Shown here: in pieces, positions 43,001 through 57,339 of the stretch
Layout of the letters: each line of letters opens with the position of its first letter
Position numbering within the stretch: position 1 is the first letter of the stretch
From: Bacteroidota bacterium
GTDB lineage: Bacteria; Bacteroidota; Bacteroidia; AKYH767-A; OLB10
Assembly: GCA_023251535.1 (NCBI GenBank)
Contig: JAHEYP010000014.1
Span: forward strand, 11,726-75,725
Direction: 5' to 3'
Length of the DNA stretch: 64,000 bases
Notes under the pieces: model-generated
Seen by the model: only the letters and a program-made list of their open reading frames with translations
Told to the model about the DNA's origin: nothing
Databases searched by the model: none
Made by a program: the position numbers and the translations under genes

Positions 43001-44428
43001 CATTTTCCCTTCAATTCCTTCAAGTGATAAAATTGGGAGGTATACAATTAGAATAATGATTTGTCCGAATACCGCTGCATTCATCATTTTTCCTGATGAA
43101 GTACGAACTTCTCCGTCCATTTGTAGTTTGCTTACTTCGGTTAATTCAGCGAATTGTTTATTATGGTGAAGTCGATGTAAGATGGCTTCAACAATAATTA
43201 CAGCACCATCAACAATTAGTCCGAAGTCGAGTGCTCCTAAACTCATTAAGTTTCCGCTCACACCAAAGACATTCATTAGAATTATCGCGAACAACATTGA
43301 AAGAGGAATTACTGAAGCTACCAATAATCCTGCTCTGAAATTGCCTAAGAATAATACTAAAATCAATACTACAATTAGTGCCCCTTCAATCAAGTTTCGC
43401 TCTACAGTGGAAATGGCATTGTTCACCATTTTAGTTCTGTCGAGGAATGCTTCGACTTCGACTCCCTCGGGTAAAGTTTTGTTGATTTCTGCGATTTTTT
43501 CTTTTACTTTTTTAATAACTTTAGATGAGTTTTCGCCCTTTAACATCATTACAACTGCTCCGCATACCTCACTTTTATTGTTGTATAGTACTGCTCCATA
43601 TCGAACCGCAGAACCAATTTTCACTTCAGCCACATCTTTAACCTTTACCGAAGTTCCATTGCTGGTTTGCTTAATTGGAATGGATTCAATTTCTTGTTGA
43701 TTTTTTACAAGTCCCTCACTGCGTATGTATAAAACACTTGGACCCTTTTCTATATATGCACCTCCTGTATTTTGATTGTTTTGTTCAACCGCATCAATCA
43801 CATCTTGCAATGAAACTTGAAGAGATTTGAGCTTTTCAGGATTAATGGCTATTTCGAATTGCTTTAATTTACCCCCGAAAGAGCTGACATCGGCAACACC
43901 TTCGGTTCCGAGTAATTGTTTACGGATAATCCAATCTTGAATACTTCGAAGTTCCTGCAATGAATATTTGTTTTCATATCCTTTAGCAGGTTTTACTACG
44001 TATTGATAAATTTCTCCTAGACCAGTTGTTACTGGACCTAATTCAGGTCTTCCTACTTCAGGAGGAATTATTGAGGCGACTTGTTGGAGACGTTCGTTTA
44101 CTTGAGTCCTAGCCCAGTAAATATCAGTTTCGTCTTTAAATACTATCGTAACAACTGATAATCCGAAGCGAGAAAACGATCGTTGTTCGATGATACCCGG
44201 TATGTTTCGAGTTACTTGCTCGATAGGAGCAGTGATGATTCTTTCTATATCGGCAGCGCCATAAGAAGGAGATGATGTAATAATTGTTACCTGATTATTG
44301 GTAATATCGGGAACGGCATCGATAGGAAGTTGAGTAGCATTATAAACTCCGCCCACTATAAGTAGTAGAACAAATAAGCCTACAATCAACTTGTTTTTTA
44401 TCGATAGCCGGATGATTTTTTCCAGCAT
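40073..44428 (-). CDS. CzcA/CusA-family heavy-metal efflux RND pump fused in frame to a TolC-like outer-membrane factor (1451 aa)
   Basis: First ~1040 aa match the full 12-TM CzcA architecture and end ...VLPILYVMFEQRK; then a signal-peptide-like hydrophobic segment (NFSKAGIIAISLMIGFTAEAQ) and a ~400-aa OMF-like alpha/beta domain. Confidence 0.8.
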   Translation of the reverse strand: MLEKIIRLSIKNKLIVGLFVLLLIVGGVYNATQLPIDAVPDITNNQVTIITSSPSYGAADIERIITAPIEQVTRNIPGIIEQRSFSRFGLSVVTIVFKDETDIYWARTQVNERLQQVASIIPPEVGRPELGPVTTGLGEIYQYVVKPAKGYENKYSLQELRSIQDWIIRKQLLGTEGVADVSSFGGKLKQFEIAINPEKLKSLQVSLQDVIDAVEQNNQNTGGAYIEKGPSVLYIRSEGLVKNQQEIESIPIKQTSNGTSVKVKDVAEVKIGSAVRYGAVLYNNKSEVCGAVVMMLKGENSSKVIKKVKEKIAEINKTLPEGVEVEAFLDRTKMVNNAISTVERNLIEGALIVVLILVLFLGNFRAGLLVASVIPLSMLFAIILMNVFGVSGNLMSLGALDFGLIVDGAVIIVEAILHRLHHNKQFAELTEVSKLQMDGEVRTSSGKMMNAAVFGQIIILIVYLPILSLEGIEGKMFKPMAQTVSFAILGAFLLSLTYIPMMSSLVLSRKIKKGSNLSERIIIAIERKFKKILEKALLIPRKIVAASIILFVLSVVVLSQLGGEFIPELEEGDFAVDTRTLTGSSLTTTIQATQKTAEILKSKFPEVEKVVTKIGSGEIPTDPMPIEASDMMVILKDKSEWTSAKTFDELAEKMSRAVEDLPGVTTGFQYPVQMRFNELMTGARQDVVCKIFGDDLDSLSKYADDLGRIINTVDGARDLYVESTTGLPQLVIRVNRDGLIKHNITVKEVNKAIATSYSGYLAGSVYEHEERYDIAIRLDSTSRTKTEDIGSLPIVKNNGIIIPLREVADVNIEVGPNQIQREDAHRRITIGFNVRGRDVESIVKELKEKTENQIKFPTGYYITYGGQFENLIQARQRLMIAVPIALLLILLMLYFAFGKIKQGLLIFSAIPLSAMGGIFALWLRDMPFSISAGIGFIALFGVAVLNGIVLITEFNLLKREGMKDPKQLVLKGTSIRLRPVLMTACVASLGFLPMALSNGAGAEVQRPLATVVIGGLITATLLTLIVLPILYVMFEQRKPKIRNLNFSKAGIIAISLMIGFTAEAQEIKVVSKEEAVRLAIENNSALKAFSLNAEIMNSESRSNSKFDPLDISTSFGNLNGNTNDSRITFIQNIPNIPEIIAAKKQNNIKLLQNENERKLFEKEISKSVRNLYDELSALQYKATLLTQTDSLFAKAQERFQQMFDAGEIGVGELLQMKLRRNNLLNELQNNNQQIFEVGSNLRSLIQVDYYIKPTMLKSLSIEKIDTSSISKSEQLSIKHITLESEILNRAIQIEKAKFFPKFRAGYSLQSFNSEGTSSSYLSNINYQSFDAGIQIPLICFNYGSGLKKSKARLRINELNKTKSSIKIDNDINIALSKYRISTAILERSLSTDLLLVGQLQNGLKNKLNEGEINYTEWVLTGELILRTYLTTIDNWTNQRESLNEILFYTNN

Positions 44429-44502
44429 TGAATAAATAAGTTAAGAGTAATTAAAATGGAATTCCAAAGCGCTAAACGGCGCTAATTTGCACTTAATAAA
44501 AA

Positions 44503-44880
44503 TTATGCACGCGGCGGTTGCCAAACGGTATTCGGAATATGAATAGTATTATGTTCCTGATAATCGAAAAACAGGGTGGTTTCTATGTCATTGAAAACAA
44601 AACCGGGGAATTCTATTTTTTCTGTATTAGCAATTGGAGCAGATGCGAAATTGTACTCGAAACTTTTAAATGGAAGCTTCATGTCTTCATGTGCATCGCT
44701 ATCGTAGTTCTCTAATTCACGGTAATGGAGGAACAAAAACTCTGCAATGCCCAATTCTGGTTCAGTAATTCTATGTTCGTTAAAATGATGCGTAAGTGCC
44801 GGCAGCTTCATTAGCTGATACAATCCCGCTTGAGGGAAAGCTACAGCTAACAATAAAAATAAGGCTATGGCACGCTTCAT
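44503..44880 (-). CDS. Small secreted His/Asp/Glu-rich hypothetical protein at the head of the efflux operon
   Basis: Signal peptide MKRAIALFLLLAVAFPQAG; HHFNEH and HYRELENYDSDAHEDM segments. Confidence 0.45.
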   Translation of the reverse strand: MKRAIALFLLLAVAFPQAGLYQLMKLPALTHHFNEHRITEPELGIAEFLFLHYRELENYDSDAHEDMKLPFKSFEYNFASAPIANTEKIEFPGFVFNDIETTLFFDYQEHNTIHIPNTVWQPPRA

Positions 44881-44953
44881 AATCGCAAATATAGTGTCTA
44901 TAGACTAATATGTGAAATAAAACTTCTGAATCGGGAAAATCTATACTTGAAAC

Positions 44954-45652
44954 TTATTTTTTACTTGACAGATGAATGTAAAATGTATGATCCAAACATT
45001 TTCCGTTTGTGTCTGAATGTATTTTAACCTTATGTTGTCCGCTTTCGTCAAGGACATATTCTTCCATTTCTTTCAACTCGGGCACGGGCTTGTCAGATTT
45101 TATAACCCATACTTCTGTATTCGTTTTCACGTGGTCTTTGTAATAAGATTTGTAGGTAATACAATCATTCGGACTATAACAAGTTGTATTTAGAAACTCA
45201 TTTCCCAAGCTATCCAATACTATACGTTGTTCAACGGTAGGAATTGAATCTCCTTTAAAACTCCAATAAACAATCCATCCCCTTGGCATTGTATCCTTAA
45301 TACGCATTAAAGCCATGCTAAAACTACTATCGGCATTAAAAAGACTATCGGCAAACCACTCTTGATTTGGTTGGTAATACACTTTGTTGAACTTCTTTAG
45401 CTTCCCGTTTTCGTCAAAAGATGTCTTTTTATACAACTTTCCCGAAGAATTATAATAGTAATAAAGTGTAGTGGGAGGGAAGTCGCGCCTTACTTTCTTT
45501 ACAAGCTGTTCTTCTCTGTTAAAGTAACTCACCGAAACAGTATCACATACCTTTTGATCACAATCGCATTTTAGCTCATAAGTGATTTTTTGGGCATTGC
45601 TTTGGAATATACCCAATGTGCAAAATAGAAGAAGTAAAAGAATTCGTTTCAT
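44954..45652 (-). CDS. Hypothetical secreted protein
   Basis: Signal peptide; CDCDQKVC cysteine cluster; no family recognised. Confidence 0.45.
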   Translation of the reverse strand: MKRILLLLLFCTLGIFQSNAQKITYELKCDCDQKVCDTVSVSYFNREEQLVKKVRRDFPPTTLYYYYNSSGKLYKKTSFDENGKLKKFNKVYYQPNQEWFADSLFNADSSFSMALMRIKDTMPRGWIVYWSFKGDSIPTVEQRIVLDSLGNEFLNTTCYSPNDCITYKSYYKDHVKTNTEVWVIKSDKPVPELKEMEEYVLDESGQHKVKIHSDTNGKCLDHTFYIHLSSKK

Positions 45653-45764
45653 AGGGTGGCAAAAATAGCGAAGGGGAATAGATTCATTCGATTTCCTTTG
45701 TTATTTGAATCAGATTTGGATAAATCTTGGTAAATAGGTATATTTACGGCAAATAGCTATAGTT

Positions 45765-46193
45765 ATGGAGAATTTAACCGATATTAAATGTCCGAAGTGC
45801 CAGTCCTATAGGGTCATTAAAAGTGGAATTGTTAATAGTAAACAGCGCTTTTGTTGTAAGAATTGCAGTTATTATTTTACGGTTGATAAGCTGGGCAAGC
45901 GTATCGATTCATATTATGTGACCAAAGCTCTGCAGTTGTATATCGAAGGACTTAGCTCTCGAGAAATTGAACGTTTGTTAGGTATTAGTCATGTTTCTGT
46001 AATGAATTGGGTGAAGCAATATGGTTTGAAACGTCCGGTGAATAGTCAGTATCATCCAAGCTATAAAGTTTTGAATCATTCCGAGTTGGTGGAGTATATG
46101 AGTAAAAAGGAGAATCTTAGTGGTGCAGGATCGGTAATTACTGAGTTGGGTGATAAGTTTATGTTGATTAAATGGGAGCGGTTTAGATCCTGA
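45765..46193 (+). mobile_element. Truncated IS1-family transposase remnant (InsA-like zinc finger + HTH; no DDE/InsB part)
   Basis: CPKCQSYRVIKSG...FCCKNCSYYF zinc ribbon followed by HTH LSSREIERLLGISHVSVMNWV; the ORF ends after 142 aa and no catalytic ORF follows. Confidence 0.55.
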
Positions 46194-46348
46194 TTTTTTA
46201 AAATTTGAGTTTTTACCTCTTAAAATTGTTGTTTTTTAAGTAACTATTGTAAATTAACAAATAGCTACATTTAATTTGCAAAAAGAGGGTAGGTGTTTGC
46301 ACATTTGGTCGTCGGGTCCGGACTCCCAACCAATTAAAACATCTAACC

Positions 46349-47767
46349 ATGAAAAAAAATCTATTAACTATTGCCGGTGTTTGCTGTCTGTTGTTAAATG
46401 CATTCGTAGCTTCTGCTCAAGGAGGCGAAGGTTATGGCAGCGGAATCAAAATAAATTTGGATACCACCGGTACCCGATTTATTCGAATTATAAATTGGCA
46501 CCAAGTCTGGGTTCGATATAATGAAAACAATCCCGGTAGTACTGCTAATGGTGAGGCTTCAAATAGTCAAGTTGATTTCGCTATTCGTCGCTCTCGTTTT
46601 TTATTCATGACGCAAATTAGTCCGAAGTTTTTAGTAGTAACTCACTTTGGTATCAATAATCAAACCTTATTAAGCGGGGGCGCTTCGGGACAAGGAGCTG
46701 CCGGTACTGATGGTAAAAAACCTCAATTGTTTTTACACGACCTATGGGCTGAATATGCCATCAAAAAAGAGGTGATGTATTTCGGTGCAGGGTTGAATTA
46801 CTGGCAGGGTCCTTCCCGAAAAGCGAATGCAAGTACACTAAATTTCATGACGCTCGATGCACCGATTCATAATTGGTATAATATCGATGCTACAGATCAA
46901 TTCGGACGTTATCCAGGTATGTATATCAAAGGAAAAATCCTAAAAAGCAGAAAGCTTGATTATCGCTTAGCATTGAACTTTCCTTTTGCTATGCCTGCTG
47001 CAAATGCGCTCACAAAACTTGATACAACTGCTGCTAAAAACAATAAAGTAATAGCTTCTTATCGTGGTTTAGGAATGCAAAAAACAATGACTACAGGATA
47101 TATCATGTATCAGTTTAAGGAGAAAGAAAGTAATGTTCTTCCTTATACTGTCGGTACTTATTTGGGTTCAAAAAAAGTTATCAATGTAGGATTCGGAGGA
47201 AGCTATACTCCTGAAATGATGTGGGCACTTCAGAAAAATTCTTCTACAGGAAAATTAGATACAGTTCGTCAAGATCAACTGCTTTTGGCTGCCGATTTTT
47301 TCATGGACCTGCCGCTTAATAAAAGTAAAGGAACCGCAGTTACTTTGTATGCTTCTGCTCAGTATTGTAATATGGGCGATAACTTCGTTCGTTTAGTGGG
47401 ATTATCGAATCCTACTAATGGATTGAATTCGGAAAGCACTTATTCGGGGACTGGCAATAATGTTCCTGTTGTTGGTACCGGTACAATCATGTACGCTGAA
47501 GCAGGTTATCTTTTTCCTGCAACAAAAATCGGGAAATTTCAACCTTATGTTGCTTGTAACTATGCACAATATGATCGGATATCCGATGCCGTTATGATTA
47601 ATGATGTTGGTGTAAATTACTTAGTGAATGGCCATCATGCAAAAATTACACTCAATTATCGCTCTCGCCCTTATTTCGATTATAAAGATCCAGCTGTTAA
47701 ATATGGTGATATCGTGAAGAAGGGAAATAAGAGTGAAATTACTATGCAATTCCAAGTTTACTTGTAG
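46349..47767 (+). CDS. Outer-membrane beta-barrel porin-like protein
   Basis: Signal peptide MKKNLLTIAGVCCLLLNAFVASAQ; alternating amphipathic strands; C-terminal ...FQVYL. Confidence 0.55.
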   Translation: MKKNLLTIAGVCCLLLNAFVASAQGGEGYGSGIKINLDTTGTRFIRIINWHQVWVRYNENNPGSTANGEASNSQVDFAIRRSRFLFMTQISPKFLVVTHFGINNQTLLSGGASGQGAAGTDGKKPQLFLHDLWAEYAIKKEVMYFGAGLNYWQGPSRKANASTLNFMTLDAPIHNWYNIDATDQFGRYPGMYIKGKILKSRKLDYRLALNFPFAMPAANALTKLDTTAAKNNKVIASYRGLGMQKTMTTGYIMYQFKEKESNVLPYTVGTYLGSKKVINVGFGGSYTPEMMWALQKNSSTGKLDTVRQDQLLLAADFFMDLPLNKSKGTAVTLYASAQYCNMGDNFVRLVGLSNPTNGLNSESTYSGTGNNVPVVGTGTIMYAEAGYLFPATKIGKFQPYVACNYAQYDRISDAVMINDVGVNYLVNGHHAKITLNYRSRPYFDYKDPAVKYGDIVKKGNKSEITMQFQVYL

Positions 47768-47794
47768 GAGTTCTTACCTCAAAAAAATTAAATT

Positions 47795-49360
47795 ATGTCA
47801 GAACAAGCATTTAAAAAGACAATACGTAGTGTAATTGCCGCAAGCTCGGTGGGTACACTTATCGAATGGTACGATTTCTACATCTTTGGTAGTTTGGCTA
47901 CAATCATTTCTACACAGTTTTTCCCTGATGATAAATCTTCAGCTGCGTTACTTTCTACTTTAGCAATATTTGCCGCCGGCTTTATTGTGCGCCCTTTTGG
48001 TGCATTAGTATTTGGACGTTTAGGCGATATGATTGGGCGTAAGTATACTTTCTTGTTAACCCTTGTATTAATGGGCGGATCTACTTTCGCTATCGGATTA
48101 ATACCTACTTATAAAACAATTGGTGTTGCCGCTCCTTTGTTGGTGCTATTGCTTCGCCTCATTCAAGGTTTAGCTCTTGGTGGTGAATATGGTGGTGCTG
48201 CTACTTATGTCGCCGAACATGCTCCTGCTGGTAAAAGAGGATTCTATACCAGCTGGATTCAAACTACAGCAACTCTAGGATTATTCCTTTCATTAGGTGT
48301 GATCCTTACTACAAGAACTACCCTGGGCGTAGAAACATTTAACGATTGGGGATGGAGAATTCCTTTTCTCGTTTCTTCAATCTTGGTTGTAGTTTCCATC
48401 TACATCCGCATGAAGATGCATGAGTCGCCAATGTTTACTAAACTTAAAAAAGAAGGAAGGATTTCTACTAATCCTTTGAAAGAAAGTTTTGGTAAGAAGG
48501 AAAATCTTAAGATGGTTTTATTGGCTTTATTTGGTGCAGTTATGGGACAAGGAGTAATTTGGTATACTGGACAATTCTATGCTCAATCATTCATCGAAAA
48601 TACTTGTAAAGTCGATTTCGCTCAGTCACGGACAATGTTACTTTGGGCTATTGCTTTCGCAACTCCTTTCTTTGTGGTGTTTGGTAGTTGGAGTGATAGA
48701 GTAGGACGTAAATGGATTATGTTAGGAGGGATGTTCCTCGGATTGATTTCTTACCGTAGTATCTATCAAGAGTTGTTGGATGTAACTAACGATAAAAACA
48801 AAGTGGAAGTTGTTGCTGAAAAAACACAATCTTACGAATCAAAACTCGTAACAGGAACTGCTGATTCATTAACCAAAACGATCACTATTCGTAAGTTTGA
48901 AGATGGTGCTGTGTTCAAGGAGACTAAAACAGATACTTTATATGCTGAAGTAGGTAAAGTTACTATAAAACCAACCATTAAAATGGAAAAGACTTTGGGT
49001 AATCATGATTACCGCTGGATGATTTTCTTGGTGTTTATTCAAATCATTTTTGTTACGATGGTATATGGTCCTATTGCTGCCTTCCTCGTAGAAATGTTCC
49101 CAACGCAAATTCGTTATACTTCAATGTCACTGCCATACCATATTGGTAATGGTGTCTTCGGAGGATTGGTACCGTTTATATCAACTCTAATTATTGAGTA
49201 CACTAAAACACCTGATAATCCCGCAGGACAACCTTTAGCAGGGTTGTGGTATCCAATGTCAGTTGCTGCTATCTGTTTAATTATAGGAGTCTTTTATCTG
49301 AGCAATAAAATTGATCAGAATGTAAAAGATGAAGAAAATGCTTACATCCACCATCAATAA
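47795..49360 (+). CDS. MFS transporter, metabolite:H+ symporter (MHS) family, KgtP/ProP-like carboxylate permease with a ~95-aa inserted hydrophilic segment
   Basis: GTLIEWYDFYIFG, RLIQGLALGGEYGGAATYVAEHAPAGKRGFYTS and WGWRIPFL motifs parallel KgtP. Confidence 0.8.
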   Translation: MSEQAFKKTIRSVIAASSVGTLIEWYDFYIFGSLATIISTQFFPDDKSSAALLSTLAIFAAGFIVRPFGALVFGRLGDMIGRKYTFLLTLVLMGGSTFAIGLIPTYKTIGVAAPLLVLLLRLIQGLALGGEYGGAATYVAEHAPAGKRGFYTSWIQTTATLGLFLSLGVILTTRTTLGVETFNDWGWRIPFLVSSILVVVSIYIRMKMHESPMFTKLKKEGRISTNPLKESFGKKENLKMVLLALFGAVMGQGVIWYTGQFYAQSFIENTCKVDFAQSRTMLLWAIAFATPFFVVFGSWSDRVGRKWIMLGGMFLGLISYRSIYQELLDVTNDKNKVEVVAEKTQSYESKLVTGTADSLTKTITIRKFEDGAVFKETKTDTLYAEVGKVTIKPTIKMEKTLGNHDYRWMIFLVFIQIIFVTMVYGPIAAFLVEMFPTQIRYTSMSLPYHIGNGVFGGLVPFISTLIIEYTKTPDNPAGQPLAGLWYPMSVAAICLIIGVFYLSNKIDQNVKDEENAYIHHQ

Positions 49361-49372
49361 AATCACTTTGCT

Positions 49373-49600
49373 ATGTCACAGTTAAGGAAAATATTAGGCA
49401 TCGTATGGATGCTTCTAGGGCCGGCTACTATTATATTTTTAATCAGTCAGGCTTCGCATAAAATCTCTCAACCTACAAGTACAACAAACGATGTGCTGCA
49501 GTGGGGAATCATCATCACCATCTTTGTTCCAATAGCTATCGGACTGATGATATTCGGGTACTATGCCGTAAAAGGAGAGTACGCAGAAATAGAAGAATAA
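49373..49600 (+). CDS. Small 2-TM membrane protein, unknown function
   Basis: 75-aa ORF starting 13 nt after the MFS gene, with two hydrophobic helices. Confidence 0.4.
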   Translation: MSQLRKILGIVWMLLGPATIIFLISQASHKISQPTSTTNDVLQWGIIITIFVPIAIGLMIFGYYAVKGEYAEIEE

Positions 49601-49688
49601 ATTAGTAATTACAATCAGGCCGGTATCGTCGCAGGTCCGGCTTGGTTGTTCTTAATTTATTATGTTGAATTTTGTTTAAATTAGTGCA

Positions 49689-49880
49689 ATGAATAATAGG
49701 GTGTCGTTGAAGCTTGGCGTTTTAGCAGTAGTTGGTTTATTACTGTTCAATTTTCCGTTGCTGAAAACGGTTAATTCTGCTGCCTTTTCTTCGAATTTAC
49801 CGATGATGCCTATTTATTTGTTTGTTTGCTGGATTCTTTTTGTCGCCCTCATTTTTTTAATCGTAAGGAGAAAGATATGA
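49689..49880 (+). CDS. Small 2-TM protein translationally coupled to the sensor kinase (CbrX/DUF485-like)
   Basis: 63-aa ORF; its TGA stop overlaps the kinase ATG (ATGA at 49877-49880). Confidence 0.45.
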   Translation: MNNRVSLKLGVLAVVGLLLFNFPLLKTVNSAAFSSNLPMMPIYLFVCWILFVALIFLIVRRKI

Positions 49881-52579
49881 ATCCGGTGATATTATCGATC
49901 GTATTTGTAGCGTACTTGCTATTACTGTTTTTCATCGCCTTTAAAGCTGAAGGATGGAAGTGGAAGGGACGAAAGATTACTTCATTACCTTTAGTTTATG
50001 CTCTTTCCGTTTCGGTGTTTTGCACGGCGTGGACTTTCTATGGAAGCTTAGGATCTGCATCAACAGGTTCACTTAATTTCTTGGCGGTTTATTTGGGTCC
50101 AACCATTATGGCGCCTTTAGGGTTTTTATTACTTAAAAAATTAGTACGTGTTTGTAAATTACAACAAATAACTTCGTTAGCAGATTTGATCTCATCTCGC
50201 TATGGGAAAAATATTTCATTGGGTTCTATTGTTACTGTTTGTTGTTTTATAGGTATCGTACCTTATCTTTCTCTTCAGTTAAAAGCTATCTCCGAAAGTT
50301 TTAGGATTTTAGGAGGGTATTCGTTCGATTATAAAGGCGTTGATACAATTGCTCTTGTAATCTCTTTCGTCTTAATTGGTTTTACTGTATTGTTTGGGTC
50401 TCGTAAAACACTGACTAGCGAACAGCATAGTGGATTATTAGCAGCAGTAGCTTTTGAATCGATTGTTAAGTTATTTGTATTCCTTCTTGCAGGATTAATT
50501 ATTTCGTATTTGGCATGGAATTCGCTTTCTGTCGGATTGAATTCAGATAGAATTGTGTCGGGATTCGCTTCTTTTTTTAAGGAAAAAGAGCATAGTACTT
50601 TTAATTTTGGTGATTGGTTCTGGGTTGCTTTAATCTCTGGATTTGCTTCTATTTTATTGCCTCGAATGTTTCAAATTAATGTGGTTGAGAATGATTCTGA
50701 ACATAATCTTACGCATTCAGTATGGGTATTTCCTTTTTACCTTTTATTGATTAATATTTTTGTTTTGCCGATTGCTTATGCAGGTTATTTGTTTCTCGGG
50801 AACAATACTATAACAGATTATACTTTATTGCTGCTTCCTTTAAAGTATAATTTGCCTTGGTTGGCTGTTTTCGTTTTTATTGGTGGGATTTCAGCTGCTA
50901 CGAGCATGGTAATTGTAGAAACGATTGCATTGAGTACAATGTTTAGTAATAGTTTAGTAATTCCTTTTTTAGCTCGTCAAGCTAATAGTAATTCGAAGAT
51001 TTCTTCTATTGGAAACAGTACTTTGTTTATCCGGAAGTTCGGCGTGTTCTTTACTATTTTGTCGGCTTATTTGTATTATGAGTTTGTGAGTCATTATACA
51101 AGTTTGATTTCAATCGGATTAATTTCTTTTGTTTCTGTTGCTCAATTTGCTCCTTCAGTTTTTGGAGGATTATATTGGAAGTCAGGAAATAAATACGGTG
51201 CATTGTCAGGTATTATAATAGGGTTCGTTGTTTGGTTTTTTACACTCATCGTTCCTTCGCTCGCACAAAATAATATTTTAAGTCGCGATATAATTGATTA
51301 TGGTTTGTTTCATCTAGCTTGGCTTAAGCCAAATTCATTGTTTGGTCTCGATGGATGGGGTTCAATTGCACATGCTTCGTTTTGGTCACTGTTGTTTAAT
51401 TTTGGTTGTTATATTGTTGTTTCTGTGTGGACAAATCAAACAGAGGAAGAAAAAGCTCAAGCCGAATTATTTGTCGATATTTTCAAGTATTCTGAAGTGT
51501 ATGAGTCTTCGGTTGTTTATAAGGGTGTAGCTTATATTCCCGATGTGAAAGCTTTACTTGCGAACTTTGTAGGTGATGTTCGTGCCAATAACTTAATTAA
51601 CGCCTTTTCTAAACGCCATAAAATTGAAAATGATATTTCTGCAAAGGCAGATCCTCGTATGGTGGCTTTCGTTGAGCGTACATTAAGTGGAATCGTGGGA
51701 TCGGCATCATCTCGTTTAATGGTTGCTACTGTCGTTAAAGAGGAAGAAGTGAGCGTCCAAGAGTTGATGGGTGTACTAAAGGAATCGCAGAGCCTTATCG
51801 CTTTGAACAATGAATTGAAACGAAAAACAATTGAGTTGAATAATACTAAAAGTGATTTGGAGGATACAAATCGTAAGTTAATTCAGCTTGACGAATTGAA
51901 GGACGATTTTTTAACTACCGTAACTCATGAATTGCGTACTCCAATTACTTCTATTCGTGCATTTTCTGAAATTTTGTATGATAATCCTGATATGGAGATC
52001 GAAGATCGTCAACATTATACTAACATTATAACTCGCGAAACGGAACGTATTACTCGATTAATTGCTCAAGTTTTGGACTTAGAGAAATATGAATCGGGAC
52101 GGCAAAAATTGCACCTTACTCGATTTGATTTATATGATGTTGTTATAAGTGTTATTGAAGGTATGCAACAGCTGGTTGCTGAAAAGCAAATCAATATCAA
52201 TGTCACAGAATTTTCTCACTTAGTGATTGCTGATGAAGATAAAATTACACAAGTACTAATCAACTTAATTAGCAATGCAGTGAAATTTGTCCCTCAAAAC
52301 ACAGGAGAGATTTCTATCGAATGTTCATTAGTTAGTGGTATGATTAATTTAGTGGTATCTGATAATGGTAAAGGAATCGATCCTCAGTTTCATGAGTTGA
52401 TTTTCGATAAATTCTATCAAGCAGAAAATCAAACTATACGTAAACCGAAAGGTAGCGGATTAGGTTTAGCAATCTGCAAAAAAATTATGCAACTGCATGG
52501 CGGTGATATTTCGTTGAGAAGTATTCTTGGTCAGGGCAGTGAATTCACAATAATATTTCCAATTAATAGGGAGGTTTAG
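49877..52579 (+). CDS. Sensor histidine kinase with N-terminal sodium:solute symporter (SLC5/SSS) domain, CbrA/CrbS-like, no receiver domain
   Basis: N-terminus YALSVSVFCTAWTFYGSLGSA...SLADLISSRYG parallels the CbrA SSS domain (about 13 TM helices); coiled coil; HisKA H-box LTTVTHELRTPITSIRAFSEIL; HATPase_c (DNGKGIDP...GSGLGLAICK). Confidence 0.8.
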   Translation: MNPVILSIVFVAYLLLLFFIAFKAEGWKWKGRKITSLPLVYALSVSVFCTAWTFYGSLGSASTGSLNFLAVYLGPTIMAPLGFLLLKKLVRVCKLQQITSLADLISSRYGKNISLGSIVTVCCFIGIVPYLSLQLKAISESFRILGGYSFDYKGVDTIALVISFVLIGFTVLFGSRKTLTSEQHSGLLAAVAFESIVKLFVFLLAGLIISYLAWNSLSVGLNSDRIVSGFASFFKEKEHSTFNFGDWFWVALISGFASILLPRMFQINVVENDSEHNLTHSVWVFPFYLLLINIFVLPIAYAGYLFLGNNTITDYTLLLLPLKYNLPWLAVFVFIGGISAATSMVIVETIALSTMFSNSLVIPFLARQANSNSKISSIGNSTLFIRKFGVFFTILSAYLYYEFVSHYTSLISIGLISFVSVAQFAPSVFGGLYWKSGNKYGALSGIIIGFVVWFFTLIVPSLAQNNILSRDIIDYGLFHLAWLKPNSLFGLDGWGSIAHASFWSLLFNFGCYIVVSVWTNQTEEEKAQAELFVDIFKYSEVYESSVVYKGVAYIPDVKALLANFVGDVRANNLINAFSKRHKIENDISAKADPRMVAFVERTLSGIVGSASSRLMVATVVKEEEVSVQELMGVLKESQSLIALNNELKRKTIELNNTKSDLEDTNRKLIQLDELKDDFLTTVTHELRTPITSIRAFSEILYDNPDMEIEDRQHYTNIITRETERITRLIAQVLDLEKYESGRQKLHLTRFDLYDVVISVIEGMQQLVAEKQININVTEFSHLVIADEDKITQVLINLISNAVKFVPQNTGEISIECSLVSGMINLVVSDNGKGIDPQFHELIFDKFYQAENQTIRKPKGSGLGLAICKKIMQLHGGDISLRSILGQGSEFTIIFPINREV

Positions 52580-52581
52580 TT

Positions 52582-52944
52582 ATGTATAAAATATTGATTG
52601 CCGATGATGAGCCAAACATCCTTTTATCGCTTGAATTTTTAATGCGAAAAAGTGGATATAATGTGTTTATTGCTCGAAATGGCTCGGAAGCTATGGAAAT
52701 CATAAATCGTGATAAACCTCAGTTGGTGGTATTAGATATTATGATGCCGGATATTGATGGATATCAAATTTGCACTCATATCAAATCATCAAAAGAACTG
52801 TCAGATTGCAAAGTAGTATTTCTTTCCGCCAAGGCAAAAGAAGGTGATATTAAAAAAGGATTAGAAATTGGAGCGGATGCGTATCTGACAAAACCGTTTT
52901 CTACCCGTGTATTAATGCAAAAAATAAGTGAACTGTTAAAGTAA
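52582..52944 (+). CDS. Stand-alone CheY-like response-regulator receiver domain (no output domain)
   Basis: ILIADDEPN...VVLDIMMPDIDG...AYLTKPF; 120 aa; starts 3 nt after the kinase stop. Confidence 0.85.
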   Translation: MYKILIADDEPNILLSLEFLMRKSGYNVFIARNGSEAMEIINRDKPQLVVLDIMMPDIDGYQICTHIKSSKELSDCKVVFLSAKAKEGDIKKGLEIGADAYLTKPFSTRVLMQKISELLK

Positions 52945-52957
52945 AATTCATATCACC

Positions 52958-54880
52958 ATGACACCATATCGTCAATTATATCGTCGTAGTATTGAAAACC
53001 CTGAGGCTTTTTGGGGTGAGCAAGCATCGTTAATTAAATGGTTTAAATCGCCAGAGAATATTCTTTCTCGTGATGAAAAAGGACTTTATCGATGGTATAG
53101 TGATGGTGTAATGAATACTTGTTATTTAGCGGTCGATAAACATGTGGAAGAGGGCAGAGGTGATCAAGTTGCTTTGATTTATGATTCTCCCGTTACAAAG
53201 GTTGTAGAGAAGTTTACTTATAATGATCTGCAAAAAAATGTTTCTACGCTTGCTGGTGGATTGCAAAAATTAGGAGTACAAAAGGGTGATCGTGTTGTGA
53301 TTTATATGCCTTTAGTTCCCGAAGCTTTATTTTCAATGTTGGCTTGCGCTAGAATTGGAGCCGTGCATTCAGTGGTGTTCGGCGGATTCGCTCCACATGA
53401 ATTAGCTGTTCGTATTGATGATGCGCAACCGAAAGTAATAATTTCTGCTTCTTGCGGAATAGAAATCGATCGCGTGATTGCTTATAAGCCAATGCTCGAT
53501 GATGCAATTAGTAAATCGATTTTCAAACCTCAGCATACTGTGATTTTACAACGTCCTATGATGACCGCCGATATGTGGCCCGGTCGCGATGTTGATTATA
53601 ATGAATTGGTGCAAAATTCCCCTTCTGCAGATTGTGTTCCATTAAATGCGAATGATCCTCTTTATATTCTTTATACGAGTGGAACAACAGGTAAACCGAA
53701 AGGAATATTACGCGATAATGGAGGTCATGCTGTAGCATTACGTTTTAGCATGGATCATATTTATAATGTTAAAGCCGGTGATGTGTTCTGGGCTGCAAGT
53801 GATGTGGGTTGGGTTGTAGGACATAGCTATATGGTTTATGGTCCTTTGTTGCAAGGCTGCACTACATTGCTCTATGAAGGAAAGCCTGTCCGCACTCCCG
53901 ATGCAGGAGCTTTCTGGCGAGTTGTGGAACAACATAAAGTGAATATTCTATTTACTGCTCCAACTGCATTCCGTGCTATTAAGAAAGAAGATCCCGAAGG
54001 TGAGTTGCTTCACAAGTATGATATTTCTTCATTGCATCGTTTGTATTTGGCAGGTGAACGTTGTGATGTCCCAACTTGGTATTGGGCTACTGAAATGTTG
54101 AAAGTTCCTGTTGTTGATCATTGGTGGCAAACAGAAAGCGGATGGCCTATCGTGGCTCAAATGCCTTCTATTGAGGAACATCTTTTATTGAAGCCTGGCT
54201 CTGCAGGTAAACCGATTCCGGGATATAAAATTGATGTGCTTAATGAAGAGGGTGAATTATTGATTCCTAATCAAGAGGGATTTGTTGCAATCAAATTACC
54301 TCTTCCTCCCGGATGCTTACCTGATTTGTACAACGATACTGATCGTTTCATTTCATCCTACCTTGAGAAATTCCCTGGTTACTATTTAACAGGTGATGGC
54401 GGATATAAGGATGAAGAGGATTATGTTTATATTATGGGTAGAGTTGATGATGTGATTAATGTCGCAGGACATCGATTATCTACCGGTGAAATGGAGGAGA
54501 TGGTGGCAGCTCATCCGTTCGTTGCAGAATGTGCTGTAGTTGGCATAGCCGACGAATTAAAAGGTCATCTTCCTCTTGCTTATGTTGTAGTTAGAGATGG
54601 TGTTGTGCCCAACGAATTACTTATCGAAAAGGAATTAGTAAAGTTGATTCGTGATAATATCGGAGCCGTTGCTTGTTTTAAAAATTGTGTTCTCGTTAAG
54701 CGCTTGCCAAAAACGCGATCAGGGAAAATTCTTCGACGCTTACTTCGAAATATCGCCGATGGTGAACATTATATTGTTCCAAGTACTATCGATGATCCTC
54801 TAATTTTAACAGAGGTTCATGATGCACTAAAGGCCCGCCGTATAGGGCAGGCCTTCATAGGTGTGGTGGATGATGAGTAA
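52958..54880 (+). CDS. prpE: Propionate--CoA ligase (PrpE; acyl-CoA synthetase, Acs-like)
   Basis: N-terminus and core (YRRSIENPEAFWGEQA..., LACARIGAVHSVVFGGFA, YTSGTTGKPKG, ...PKTRSGKILRR, C-terminal IDDP...) track PrpE closely. Confidence 0.7.
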   Translation: MTPYRQLYRRSIENPEAFWGEQASLIKWFKSPENILSRDEKGLYRWYSDGVMNTCYLAVDKHVEEGRGDQVALIYDSPVTKVVEKFTYNDLQKNVSTLAGGLQKLGVQKGDRVVIYMPLVPEALFSMLACARIGAVHSVVFGGFAPHELAVRIDDAQPKVIISASCGIEIDRVIAYKPMLDDAISKSIFKPQHTVILQRPMMTADMWPGRDVDYNELVQNSPSADCVPLNANDPLYILYTSGTTGKPKGILRDNGGHAVALRFSMDHIYNVKAGDVFWAASDVGWVVGHSYMVYGPLLQGCTTLLYEGKPVRTPDAGAFWRVVEQHKVNILFTAPTAFRAIKKEDPEGELLHKYDISSLHRLYLAGERCDVPTWYWATEMLKVPVVDHWWQTESGWPIVAQMPSIEEHLLLKPGSAGKPIPGYKIDVLNEEGELLIPNQEGFVAIKLPLPPGCLPDLYNDTDRFISSYLEKFPGYYLTGDGGYKDEEDYVYIMGRVDDVINVAGHRLSTGEMEEMVAAHPFVAECAVVGIADELKGHLPLAYVVVRDGVVPNELLIEKELVKLIRDNIGAVACFKNCVLVKRLPKTRSGKILRRLLRNIADGEHYIVPSTIDDPLILTEVHDALKARRIGQAFIGVVDDE

Positions 54881-54883
54881 AAA

Positions 54884-55400
54884 TTATTGAATCGCAACTC
54901 GACTTTGATATAATCCTTTGTCGGTTGTTACATTGATAATGTAAATGCCTTTAGCGAACAAACTCTTGTCGAAGCTAACTGTTGATTCTTGATTCTGTAT
55001 TTCTGTAATTAAACTTCCGTTGCTGTTGAAAATTTGTGCCGATTCAATTTTGGTTGAGTTCATGGCAACTATTTCAATGCTGTTTGCAAGATTCTTAACA
55101 ACTAGATTATTGCTGTTGCTGATTTCTTGTATTCCAACGCCATTAACAATTACCGGTGCAGATGTCGCCGGACAACCAATCGAGTCTACAATTGTAACAG
55201 TGTATGTTCCGTTTTGTGTTGCAGTATATGATTGATTTGTTCCTGTTACTATCGGCTGACCATTATAGTTCCATTGGTAAGTTGTTGCTGAAGTTGACGT
55301 TAATACGGCACCGTTAGTAGTAATAATAGGAGTTAATGATCCTTGATAGAAAGGAACGTTAGTTGATAGTGATCCTGATGTTAATGTTCCCGCATTTCCA
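54884..55400. repeat. Near-identical (>95%) direct repeat, copy 1 (3' half of the LamG/T9SS gene)
   Basis: Aligns at offset +1220 to 56104-56620 with only scattered SNPs. Confidence 0.8.
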
Positions 55401-56098
55401 CTTGTTGTTTGATCAGGAATATTAGTTCCGCTTGCTACATTAAAGTTCCAATACCCCACTAACCCCGGTGATGTTGGTGAAATATGACGATTGTATCCTG
55501 CTAAAATTTCAGAACGTGATAAAGCTCGATCCCAAATTCTGGCTTCATCAATTTGTCCACTGAAAAATCTACTTGGTGTTCCACTTCCTTCCGACCATCT
55601 TCCTATACATAATGGAAATGCTGTTGATGGAACTATCGATCCTCTAAATGCAGTAGCCCCAACTTCAATTGTGTTTAGGTAGATTTTTAAACTGTCGCCG
55701 TCATAAACTCCCGCAACATGTTGCCAAGTGTTTAGCGAAAGTGTGTTAATAGGACTTATTATTTCTTTCCATGTTGCCACTAATCCTGAACTGTCGGTGC
55801 CTGCAATTGCAAATGATAATTGCCCCATTCCACCACATCTAATTACATAACCTTGCTTTCCTTGGCTAGAACTGTGTTTGCATATAATGGAATTTGTAAA
55901 CGACGAAGTCCCGAAAGTTGATGGTTTAATCCATGCTTCTAAGGTTACTGTACTATCAAGTGATAAATTGGTGCTATTTACAAAGGAAACATAGCCTGAA
56001 GTTCCACCCAATAAAATCGATTTTGTATTGGCAGTGCATTGTGCATTACAATTTACATAAATTGAGCATAACAATACTAAGGTTGCAAGATGTTTCAT
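54884..56098 (-). CDS. T9SS-secreted LamG (concanavalin-like) domain protein, downstream copy of a tandem paralog pair
   Basis: Signal peptide; LamG-like jelly-roll domain; Ig-like domain; T9SS C-terminal domain (...GIYIINVTTDKGLYQSRVAIQ). Confidence 0.65.
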   Translation of the reverse strand: MKHLATLVLLCSIYVNCNAQCTANTKSILLGGTSGYVSFVNSTNLSLDSTVTLEAWIKPSTFGTSSFTNSIICKHSSSQGKQGYVIRCGGMGQLSFAIAGTDSSGLVATWKEIISPINTLSLNTWQHVAGVYDGDSLKIYLNTIEVGATAFRGSIVPSTAFPLCIGRWSEGSGTPSRFFSGQIDEARIWDRALSRSEILAGYNRHISPTSPGLVGYWNFNVASGTNIPDQTTSGNAGTLTSGSLSTNVPFYQGSLTPIITTNGAVLTSTSATTYQWNYNGQPIVTGTNQSYTATQNGTYTVTIVDSIGCPATSAPVIVNGVGIQEISNSNNLVVKNLANSIEIVAMNSTKIESAQIFNSNGSLITEIQNQESTVSFDKSLFAKGIYIINVTTDKGLYQSRVAIQ

Positions 56099-56103
56099 AG
56101 TTC

Positions 56104-56620
56104 TTATTGTATCGCAACACGACTTTGATATAATCCTTTGTCGGTTGTTACATTGATAATGTAAATTCCTTTAGCGAATTGGCTTTTATTGAAGCTAACT
56201 GTTGATTCTTGATTCTGTATTTCTGCAATTAAACTTCCGTTGCTGTTGAAAATTTGTGCCGATTCAATTTTGGTTGAGTTCATGGCAACTATTTCAATGC
56301 TGTTTGAAAGATTCTTAACGACTAGATTATTGCTGTTGTTGATTTCTTGTATTCCAACGCCATTAACAATTACCGGTGCAGATGTCGCCGGACAACCAAT
56401 CGAGTCTACAATTGTAACAGTGTATGTTCCGTTTTGCGTTGCAGTATATGATTGATTTGTTCCAGTTACAATCGGCTGACCATTATAGTTCCATTGGTAA
56501 GTTGTTGCTGAAGTTGACGTTAATACGGCACCGTTAGTAGAAATAATAGGAGTTAAAGATCCTTGAAAGAATGGTACATTCGTTGAAAGTGATCCTGATG
56601 TTAATGTTCCCGCATTTCCA
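56104..56620. repeat. Near-identical direct repeat, copy 2
   Basis: See copy 1; the 5' halves (LamG domains) diverge to roughly 65-70% identity. Confidence 0.8.
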
Positions 56621-57318
56621 CTCGATGTTTGATCAGGTAAACTTGTTCCTGCTGCAATATTGAAGTTCCAATACCCTGCTAATCCAGGTGAAGTAGGAGA
56701 GATATGACGATTGTATCCTGCAGCTAGTTCAGTTTGCGATACAGCTCTGTTCCATACTCTTACTTCATCAATTTGTCCACTAAAATATCTGCTGGCACCA
56801 ACTCCAGGATCCGACAACCTGCCAATAACGGCCGGGAATGATGTTGATGGTACAATAGATCCTTTGAATGCATATGCGGTAACTTGAATTGTATTTACAA
56901 ATAATCGGGCTGTATCACCATCATATGTAGCTGCAACATGTTGCCATGTATTTAATGTTAATGCACTTGTAGGGCTAACTACATTCTGCCAACTAGTTGG
57001 TGTGCCGGTACTATCAAGACCTGCAAAATTAAAGGATAGCTGTCCGCTGGCACCACATCTTAAAACATAACCCATTTCTCCTTGCGTCCAACTGTGTTTG
57101 CAGAATATGGAATTGGTGTAGTTGTTGGCTCCAAATGCTGTTGGTTTTATCCAAGCTTCCACCGTGATAGCACTGTCAATTTGTAAATTGCTATCTGTCG
57201 TAAATGACACATAGCTACTCGTACCATTTAATACAATTGATTTGGTGTTTGCTGTACATTGGCTGTATGCTTGTGTGCCAAATCCTAAGGTTAAAATAAG
57301 CAGTAGAATTCTTTTCAT
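56104..57318 (-). CDS. T9SS-secreted LamG domain protein, upstream copy of the tandem paralog pair
   Basis: Same architecture as the 54884-56098 gene; C-terminal ~170 aa nearly identical; 5-nt intergenic spacer. Confidence 0.65.
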   Translation of the reverse strand: MKRILLLILTLGFGTQAYSQCTANTKSIVLNGTSSYVSFTTDSNLQIDSAITVEAWIKPTAFGANNYTNSIFCKHSWTQGEMGYVLRCGASGQLSFNFAGLDSTGTPTSWQNVVSPTSALTLNTWQHVAATYDGDTARLFVNTIQVTAYAFKGSIVPSTSFPAVIGRLSDPGVGASRYFSGQIDEVRVWNRAVSQTELAAGYNRHISPTSPGLAGYWNFNIAAGTSLPDQTSSGNAGTLTSGSLSTNVPFFQGSLTPIISTNGAVLTSTSATTYQWNYNGQPIVTGTNQSYTATQNGTYTVTIVDSIGCPATSAPVIVNGVGIQEINNSNNLVVKNLSNSIEIVAMNSTKIESAQIFNSNGSLIAEIQNQESTVSFNKSQFAKGIYIINVTTDKGLYQSRVAIQ

Positions 57319-57339
57319 GTTCTTTAATATGTTTGGGTG

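Follow-up and report, generated by a model that had tools for sequence, protein, structure and literature searches.

How the sensing of short-chain carboxylic acids might be coupled to their uptake and activation in Bacteroidota is the question raised by a locus in a 64,000-nucleotide stretch of DNA from a member of this phylum (NCBI GenBank assembly GCA_023251535.1, contig JAHEYP010000014.1, positions 11,726–75,725), hereafter the 64-kb window, within which all coordinates are given. A first-pass annotation, made from the sequence alone, had described seven co-directional genes at 46349–54880 as a carboxylate sensing, uptake and activation locus comprising a porin, a transporter of the major facilitator superfamily (MFS), two tiny transmembrane (TM) proteins, a sensor kinase, a receiver and a PrpE-like acyl-CoA synthetase. 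All seven open reading frames (ORFs) do lie on the + strand in this interval, but the left boundary was drawn too tightly, as the locus also includes an eighth gene in front of them (45765–46193, +). Its 142-aa product, here called HTH142, consists of a Zn ribbon, a helix-turn-helix (HTH) and a small C-terminal α/β domain. We lean towards the explanation that these eight genes constitute a Bacteroidota module for scavenging C2–C3 monocarboxylic acids, wired as proposed below, in which the most interesting feature is likely to be the use of a domesticated InsA-like protein, together with conserved direct repeats, as regulator. In soils, waters and guts, short-chain acids serve as a major currency of carbon, and no description of how aerobic Bacteroidota sense them was found in the literature searched; the locus provides a compact candidate set, conserved across the phylum, in which entry, sensing, regulation and activation are brought together in one place.

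Conservation of the locus

Gene neighbourhoods were compared in two scans. A kinase-seeded scan of species genomes returned 80 loci, of which about 32 were true relatives, one of the two search patterns being a generic HATPase motif. With tblastn searches for the window proteins, the same gene order was found in Flavobacterium (L001), Cytophagaceae (L002), Saprospiraceae (L003), Flavihumibacter (L006) and Winogradskyella (L025) and, from gene tables, in Pontibacter (L083), Ferruginibacter yonginensis, Pseudarcicella hirudinis and Rurimicrobium arvi, with an HTH142 orthologue (60–69% identity) directly upstream in all eight kinase-seeded Bacteroidota loci with enough flanking sequence. The independent second scan, of metagenomes, was seeded with HTH142 rather than with the kinase and, after dereplication, gave 48 loci with 7.5 kb or more of downstream sequence. 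Kinase and receiver were present on the same strand in 45 of these 48 loci and a transporter in 47, either of the MFS type (27 loci, 23 with a detectable DUF6814 gene) or of the DUF4212+SSS type (20 loci), while a synthetase was found in 40 of the 42 loci with at least 9.5 kb (30 PrpE-like, 37 Acs-like). The linkage of these genes is far beyond chance and spans Flavobacteriales, Cytophagales, Chitinophagales and Saprospiraceae. HTH142, always the first gene of the Bacteroidota locus (in the eight kinase-seeded loci above, and as the seed in the other 48), belongs to the module.

The order of the module is HTH142, porin, transporter with its small subunit, small ORF, kinase, receiver and one or two synthetases, with a PrpE-like enzyme paired with an Acs-like enzyme in most related loci. 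Two transporter pairs are interchangeable: the MFS protein with DUF6814, as in the window, or a VC_2705-type solute:sodium symporter (SSS) with a TIGR03647 small subunit (DUF4212+SSS). Genes for a cNMP/CBS/DUF294 nucleotidyltransferase and an RNase_T exonuclease are also found in L083, L087, L122, L144, L149 and L162. In Pseudarcicella hirudinis (L165:1-4096), the locus adjoins genes for malate synthase, isocitrate lyase, phosphoenolpyruvate carboxykinase and an HTH_3/Peptidase_M78 regulator.

HTH142, an IS1 InsA-like protein

HTH142 matches the NCBIfam IS1/IS1595 Zn-binding domain (NF050000, 34.5 against a cutoff of 28) and, weakly, HTH_23 and HTH_28, which gives it the Zn ribbon and HTH of the InsA type. 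The match to the IS1 transposase model is confined to positions 1–114 of 199, with 76 bits against a cutoff of 100. No InsB/DDE part, terminal inverted repeats or multiple mobile copies accompany it: the ORF stops at 142 aa and is followed by a promoter region, and the window holds one copy of the gene only. In all, 2,524 members of the family were detected; the 120 listed are all of 137–154 aa, and public sources name members transposase, IS1 family transposase or HTH protein. Across orthologous loci the protein is 137–142 aa long and 60–84% identical, above the 39–56% identity of the kinase at the same loci. The family alignment contains an invariant CPxC...CxxC, the HTH and an invariant C-terminal block (YHP.YK...GAG..TELGDK.M.IKW.RF), and an AlphaFold2 (AF2) model with a predicted local distance difference test score (pLDDT) of 82 shows a zinc ribbon, a three-helix HTH (residues 49–86) and a β-α-α-β-β domain (residues 96–139).

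The closest known analogue is the InsA protein of the insertion sequence IS1, a transposition repressor that binds the IS1 ends. Like InsA, HTH142 is small, carries an HTH behind an N-terminal CxxC...CxxC zinc ribbon and has a likely site by its own promoter. Unlike InsA, it has a conserved C-terminal α/β domain of 50 aa that is found nowhere else, and, unlike IS1, it has no insB frame, is single-copy, occupies a fixed chromosomal context and is flanked by elements that are direct repeats. No other DNA-binding protein is conserved in the Bacteroidota locus, and HTH142, judging from these sequence features, is probably its DNA-binding regulator; the family, annotated as transposase, is almost certainly one of host regulators. 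With more than 2,500 members, such a reassignment bears on mobile-element counts and on regulon prediction.

Repeated elements upstream of HTH142 and the porin gene

A 13-nt element is present in two direct copies (GTAAATAGGTATA and GCAAATAGCTATA) at 45730–45761 (+), starting at 45730 and 45749 with a period of 19 bp and ending 4 nt before the ATG of HTH142, and a third copy (ACAAATAGCTACA) is present at 46257–46269 (+), 80 nt ahead of the porin ATG. In the 64 kb there are three occurrences of the pattern RYAAATAGSTAYA, all on the + strand, against 0.05 expected, and repeat finding without prior information recovered the same three copies. Two GCTAAATTnnTATAT copies, 18–20 bp apart, lie ahead of the HTH142 gene in nearly all loci. 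A first position weight matrix (PWM), trained on Flavobacterium-type sites, scored the weaker copies in the window poorly, and a lineage-specific pattern was then used. At a strict threshold, 80 PWM pairs were found in 2.4 Mb of locus DNA, all 80 of them ahead of an HTH142 gene and none in shuffled controls, which shows specificity rather than discovery because the matrix was trained on these same sites.

Downstream of the HTH142 stop codon, at the position that corresponds to the third copy in the window, most loci carry CTATAnnnnnTT(T/A)ACAnnnnTATATAT, then a T-run and, about 35–45 nt further, (A)ATTTGG, a box that we take to resemble the Bacteroidota −7 promoter box TAnnTTTG. The porin-upstream element would then stand at about −45 to −70, an activator-type position. 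The tandem element before HTH142 is a candidate operator/promoter and the copy before the porin gene a candidate operator of the uptake operon; we consider it reasonably probable that HTH142 binds these repeats, and the prediction supplies a concrete, testable candidate operator. In several loci the gene divergent from HTH142 encodes an Acs-type synthetase (L001, L006, L164, L166) or DUF294-RNase_T (L087, L149, L162), and the tandem repeats there consequently sit in a shared control region.

Two other repeats were noted in the same region. A 14-nt inverted pair (45611–45624 / 46296–46309, 93% complementary) brackets the HTH142 gene, its left arm lying inside the neighbouring coding sequence and its right arm overlapping the putative −7-like box; it is probably due to chance. 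A second direct repeat, TTAAAATTnnnGTTTTT, occurs twice, 22 nt apart, at 46198–46236 in the porin upstream region.

Sensor kinase, small ORF and receiver

The sensor histidine kinase gene (49877–52579, +, 900 aa) starts at the ATG at 49877 and not at the TTG at 49826, and public gene calls agree on a product of 900 aa. The protein is organised as an SLC5-like membrane domain, a linker of ~70 aa with four putative helices, a coiled coil, a dimerisation and histidine phosphotransfer (DHp) domain containing H684 and a catalytic and ATP-binding (CA) domain. The DHp and CA core of SLC5/STAC kinases is recognised by Pfam (HisKA, 1.6e-16; HATPase_c, 5e-29), with H684 invariant in the family alignment and the N and G boxes intact. 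The solute-symporter domain proposed in the first-pass annotation is upheld by phmmer, in which residues 8–531 align to residues 12–506 of PDB 10ed_A with an E-value of 1e-64, indicating an N-terminal domain of the SLC5 (SSS) type. From its molecule name, length and date, this entry appears to be the CbrA SLC5-STAC cryo-EM construct (PMC13022988). A precomputed PF00474 match is on record for four homologues of the kinase, and simple hydropathy gives ~11–13 hydrophobic segments in the membrane domain, where 13 TM segments are expected for the SLC5 type.

About 150 residues separate the last TM segment from the H-box (H684). Within them, the family alignment shows a conserved block of ~70 residues (~555–625) followed by the coiled coil, and tblastn alignments to proteobacterial SLC5 kinases are collinear through this block. 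Its residue pattern reads as four helices forming two hairpins with a central loop of ~10 residues, a possible STAC-like domain. The Pfam scan revealed no PAS domain in the kinase, the linker has no room for one, and the protein ends after the CA domain with no fused receiver.

A 63-aa ORF (49689–49880, +) with two TM segments by hydropathy precedes the kinase gene, its stop codon overlapping the kinase ATG in the 4-nt sequence ATGA. In 62 of the 66 dereplicated loci, proteobacterial ones among them, such a two-TM ORF of 63–77 aa ends a few nt from the start of the kinase gene, typically with an overlap of 4 or 8 nt between its stop and that start. These small ORFs have a common pattern (...LLNFPLL...G(I/F)P..Y.Y.F..W...), and tblastn matches to the 63-aa ORF occur in Burkholderiales loci; a comparison with all PDB chains detected no sequence similarity. 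In Pseudomonas, CbrX is described as translationally coupled to cbrA (PMC6591292), and in the cryo-EM structure it forms a two-helix hairpin against TM3 and TM8 of the CbrA SLC5 domain (PMC13022988). By position, coupling and topology, the 63-aa ORF, a small two-helix hairpin coupled upstream of an SLC5 kinase, is thus a putative CbrX-like partner peptide of the kinase. The public record of this contig lacks a gene call for it; orthologues are annotated in Pontibacter and Rurimicrobium.

The receiver gene (52582–52944, +, 120 aa) begins 2 nt behind the kinase gene. Its product has only a Response_reg domain in Pfam and retains D8, D9, D52, S82, Y101 and K104, in agreement with its initial description as a single-domain receiver. 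The label of orphan, however, does not hold: orthologues with 50–71% identity lie directly behind the kinase in 45 of 48 metagenome loci, with others in Proteobacteria, and kinase and adjacent receiver are very likely a cognate pair. No other receiver gene was found in the 64-kb window, including any LuxR-type regulator detectable by receiver similarity. A derivation of the receiver from the receiver domain (REC) of CrbS was also considered and received no support, its identity to the REC of CrbS-like kinases being at most 25%, no closer than to other RECs.

The characterised SLC5/STAC kinases, in CbrA/CbrB, CrbS/CrbR (MxtR/ErdR), RpuS/RpuR and PrlS/PrlR, are all proteobacterial. Surveys note the architecture in Bacteroidetes, and the literature searched contained no study of it there and no characterised Bacteroidota equivalent, in line with the first-pass annotation, which knew of none. 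CbrA of Pseudomonas is the only solved relative and resembles the kinase of the window in its SLC5 domain and in the small two-helix ORF, CbrX, coupled to it, but CbrA contains a PAS domain, is a sensor or transporter of histidine and has the NtrC-type CbrB as its signalling partner; no NtrC-type gene is present in the locus. The likeness to CrbS/CrbR of Vibrio and Pseudomonas includes the direct connection of the SLC5-like domain to DHp-CA, by way of a helical linker and coiled coil and with no intervening PAS (PMC5715377), and the association with acs, prpE, small-subunit symporter and CBS-DUF294/RNase_T genes (PMC9927547, 10.64898/2026.09.07.749794), while identity to CrbS-like kinases is only about 30–36%. 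CrbS, however, is a hybrid kinase with a C-terminal REC and a LuxR-type partner, CrbR, whereas the kinase here is not a hybrid, its receiver of 120 aa is encoded separately and there is no linked LuxR-type regulator. The target genes are, moreover, all clustered here with the sensor, with an added porin and InsA-like HTH protein, and an MHS-family (metabolite:H+ symporter) or VC_2705-type transporter takes the place of the ActP of the CrbS/MxtR regulon. The locus extends the SLC5/STAC transceptor systems rather than representing a new kind of system. The CbrA/CrbS 'transceptor' family thereby gains a minimal form, which lacks a PAS domain and a fused receiver, has a CbrX-like peptide and may lend itself better to study.

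Uptake and activation genes

The porin gene (46349–47767, +, 472 aa) has no match in Pfam and a weak, sub-threshold match to the NCBIfam ExtI porin model. Its product has a signal peptide (N-terminal sequence ending ...ASAQ), and an AF2 model built with 40 homologues (pLDDT 81.5, predicted template modelling score 0.81) is a large antiparallel β-barrel of ~16–18 long strands that matches MOMP, OmpK35, OprP and OmpF in Foldseek with a probability of 1.00 and E~1e-11, which places it with the general/specific β-barrel porins, as first annotated. The porin was found by tblastn in 33 of the 48 metagenome loci.

The MFS transporter gene (47795–49360, +, 521 aa) follows after 27 nt. Its product matches Pfam Sugar_tr (above cutoff) and MFS_1, and the best model is TIGR00883 of the MHS family (364 bits, 1e-108), with a score below the cutoff of 443 because a loop of ~85 residues splits the match. 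This hydrophilic, β-rich-looking loop (about residues 330–410 by hydropathy) is kept in orthologues, including proteobacterial ones of 552–563 aa, and orthologues with 58–69% identity occupy the same position in other loci. In the NCBIfam scan no KgtP, TcuC, ProP or ShiA model came near its cutoff, so that the original designation 'KgtP-like' is true at the level of the MHS family only, and monocarboxylates are likelier substrates than dicarboxylates. A further 12 nt downstream, the DUF6814 gene (49373–49600, +) encodes a 75-aa protein (PF20664, 104 bits) with two predicted TM helices; this protein and the 63-aa ORF are the two tiny TM proteins first described. DUF6814 follows the MFS gene in 23 of the 27 MFS-type metagenome loci and is likely to be a small subunit of the transporter.

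A long periplasmic loop in the same place (residues 337–454), mapped by experiment, is described for Deh4p, a haloacetate permease of the MHS family (PMC2777183), and uptake activity linked to Deh4p is reported to carry acetate too (PMC3552994). The resemblance to Deh4p/Dehp2 of Burkholderia, drawn by description only, would extend to the substrates, which are C2–C3 acids in the case of Deh4p (PMC2777183, PMC3552994) and similar acids as proposed here, whereas a DUF6814 partner is not described for Deh4p; we treat it as a lead on the substrate rather than as a test.

The synthetase gene (52958–54880, +, 640 aa) begins 13 nt behind the receiver gene and encodes ACAS_N, AMP-binding and AMP-binding_C domains (Pfam) with the catalytic SGK lysine motif. 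The best PDB match, 5gxd_A, extends over the full length with 813 bits, against 492 for Salmonella Acs, and the likeness to PrpE (PDB 5gxd; S. enterica PrpE models) covers all Acs/PrpE domains, the PrpE models being the closest. We take 5gxd to be PrpE, the propionate/acrylate-CoA ligase of Dinoroseobacter shibae, a degrader of dimethylsulfoniopropionate (DMSP). The score on the Acs subfamily model NF001208 (674) is just above the cutoff of 657. A prediction of the last gene as a PrpE-like short-chain acyl-CoA synthetase is supported by these comparisons, and examination of the kinase N-domain, the last gene and the linkage left the first-pass reading standing on all three. A second ORF of 640 aa, at 17574–19496, was considered as an Acs and rejected, as it is not an Acs.

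Transcription units

The short or overlapping junctions that had been noted between the genes are present. The 88-nt gap between the DUF6814 gene and the 63-aa ORF contains a GC-rich hairpin followed by a U-rich tract (49611–49649, +), with a folding energy of −30 kcal/mol (z = −4.4, 0 of 200 shuffles equally good). Most other loci likewise have a hairpin and T-run at this junction, often just 15–25 nt ahead of the small ORF. This terminator-like hairpin counts against one simple operon, and may represent a partial or leaky terminator, or an attenuator-like element, between the uptake and sensing genes; there may also be an internal promoter. A sigma-70 promoter scan, which is not built for Bacteroidota promoters, was uninformative (30 sites against 32 expected), and no Rfam family, riboswitches included, was found in 44000–56000.

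Proposed mechanism and alternative explanations

In the mechanism that we propose, the acid would pass the outer membrane via the porin and the inner membrane via the MHS-type proton symporter with its DUF6814 subunit, or via the DUF4212+SSS sodium symporter in other species, and would be trapped as acyl-CoA by the PrpE-like synthetase, with an Acs-type enzyme acting additionally in relatives. The kinase, a CrbS/CbrA-type 'transceptor' whose SLC5-like domain would bear the CbrX-like two-helix peptide, would read the availability of the acid and phosphorylate the stand-alone receiver. HTH142, as a domesticated IS1-InsA-like protein, would bind the 13–15-bp element and control transcription, and the phosphorylated receiver would modulate HTH142 via its family-specific C-terminal domain, docking there and switching it on at the 19-bp-spaced direct repeats, the two proteins together forming a split response regulator. 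The leaky terminator after DUF6814 would keep the sensor genes below the uptake genes in level. The direct action of the receiver on HTH142, with HTH142 as the missing output domain of the receiver, is a tentative step, and the receiver may act on something other than HTH142. If true, such a split regulator would be an undescribed two-component output architecture in a large share of aerobic Bacteroidota, masked by the transposase annotation.

Several results weigh against this model. At the level of single proteins, the N-domain of the kinase has no Pfam SSF match even at E≤10, a 15-sequence linker profile matched no solved STAC structure in the PDB, and the synthetase, unlike PrpE, is below both NCBI PrpE equivalog cutoffs (NF007815, 769 against 955; TIGR02316, 727 against 827). 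The pattern RYAAATAGSTAYA was written after the sites were seen. For HTH142, Foldseek with the AF2 model returned nothing significant, and its C-terminal domain, searched against 1.84 billion representatives, gave 22 matches, all of at most 183 aa and none fused to a receiver or other domain. At the level of the locus, HTH142 and a transporter are kept with no kinase in three loci (L144, L149, L102): in L144 (12231-13016) HTH142, MFS, DUF6814, receiver and synthetase are present, and in L149 and L102 neither kinase nor receiver was found within about 7–8 kb. Conversely, the closest proteobacterial kinases (38–42% identity, ~900 aa) are also followed by a single-domain receiver (43–53% identity), with no HTH142 and no DNA-binding regulator adjacent. 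The next gene is, in L004, L018, L020 and L029, one for a protein of ~700 aa that ends in a DEDD/RNase_T exonuclease domain (e.g. L020:13388-15559), and in L009 (13167-14648) one for a CBS-DUF294 protein, while the order in L007 is receiver, ~700-aa exonuclease protein and kinase. The ancestral partner of the receiver may therefore be something other than HTH142. Only the C-terminal 190 residues of the ~700-aa protein are recognisable, the N-terminal part of ~530 residues having no family match. Finally, CrbS and CrbR are unlinked in Pseudomonas (mxtR and erdR of P. putida are PP_1695 and PP_1635; PMC9927547), and the DNA-binding regulator of the present locus could likewise be encoded elsewhere.

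The locus-level points among these favour an explanation with the same metabolic role and other wiring, in which HTH142 is an autonomous local regulator and kinase and receiver signal elsewhere; we consider this possible, though unlikely. In one variant the C-terminal α/β domain of HTH142 might itself sense acyl-CoA or the acid, in keeping with a layout of HTH and small α/β domain that weakly resembles Lrp/AsnC regulators, the top Foldseek matches, at a non-significant E of 0.016. In another, an unlinked DNA-binding response regulator might be the target, and the receiver might serve as a sink or relay for phosphate in the manner of the fused REC of CrbS. In a third, the target might be the DUF294 nucleotidyltransferase/DEDD-exonuclease module, acting post-transcriptionally, as could be suggested by the presence of DUF294/RNase_T genes beside several Bacteroidota loci and by the proposal that COG2905, which is cofit with DUF4212+SSS, is necessary for DUF4212 symporter expression (10.1101/072470). 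Against rewiring of any of these kinds, the 64-kb window contains no DUF294/RNase_T gene and no second receiver gene, and HTH142, the sole DNA-binding protein conserved in the Bacteroidota locus, occurs with kinase and receiver in all but three of the 48 loci.

The substrates are, in our view with good confidence, C2–C3 monocarboxylates (acetate, propionate, possibly acrylate, lactate and pyruvate), as suggested by the families of the enzyme and transporter. The assignment to acetate/propionate-type acids is made mainly because the locus physically gathers the same kinds of gene as MxtR/ErdR controls: acs and actP are activated by this system, whose binding targets include the promoters of the CBS-protein/RNase_T operon PP_0354/0353 (PMC9927547), and in a 2026 preprint the prpE and methylcitrate-cluster promoters are reported as further binding sites and growth on propionate as dependent on the system (10.64898/2026.09.07.749794). 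The parallel with CrbS/CrbR drawn in the first-pass annotation is strengthened by the Acs-type synthetase, DUF4212+SSS and CBS-DUF294/RNase_T genes that related loci add. A module mainly for other substrates, be they dicarboxylates and α-ketoglutarate or acrylate from DMSP, lactate or pyruvate, appears improbable. The MHS family takes in KgtP, TcuC, ProP and ShiA, but the KgtP, TcuC and ProP models are all under cutoff here, and enzymes of the Acs/PrpE family activate monocarboxylates. An origin of 5gxd in a DMSP degrader, as we presume, would speak for acrylate. For lactate or pyruvate it can be said that DUF4212+SSS carries lactate or D-alanine (10.1101/072470) and that MxtR/ErdR affects pyruvate use too (PMC9927547). 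Against a module for other substrates in general stand the pairing of PrpE-like and Acs-like synthetases in most related loci and the glyoxylate-shunt genes adjoining one of them. It is barely credible that the HTH142 gene is a decayed IS1 insertion beside an ordinary operon, with the repeats as relics of its ends, since, for all the public transposase names, the InsA-type Zn ribbon and HTH and the 14-nt inverted pair around the gene, it is uniform in length (137–142 aa) and 60–84% identical across orders, holds the same position and orientation in some 56 independent loci, has no second copy in the window and no InsB/DDE frame behind it, and is accompanied by conserved repeats that are direct and not inverted, one arm of the inverted pair lying inside the neighbouring coding sequence.

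Flanking genes

On both sides the locus is flanked by unrelated genes on the opposite strand. To the left, 40073–44428 (−) is a single ORF of 1451 aa with an ACR_tran domain (Pfam, AcrB-type RND pump, residues 5–1034) and an OEP domain (residues 1073–1234), apparently an inner-membrane pump fused to an outer-membrane factor. To the right, genes with LamG and type IX secretion system (T9SS) domains occupy 54884–58719 (−). Two of them (54884–56098 and 56104–57318) encode tandem paralogues of 404 aa with LamG, PKD and T9SS sorting domains, and a third T9SS-tailed protein is encoded beyond them at 57340–58719.

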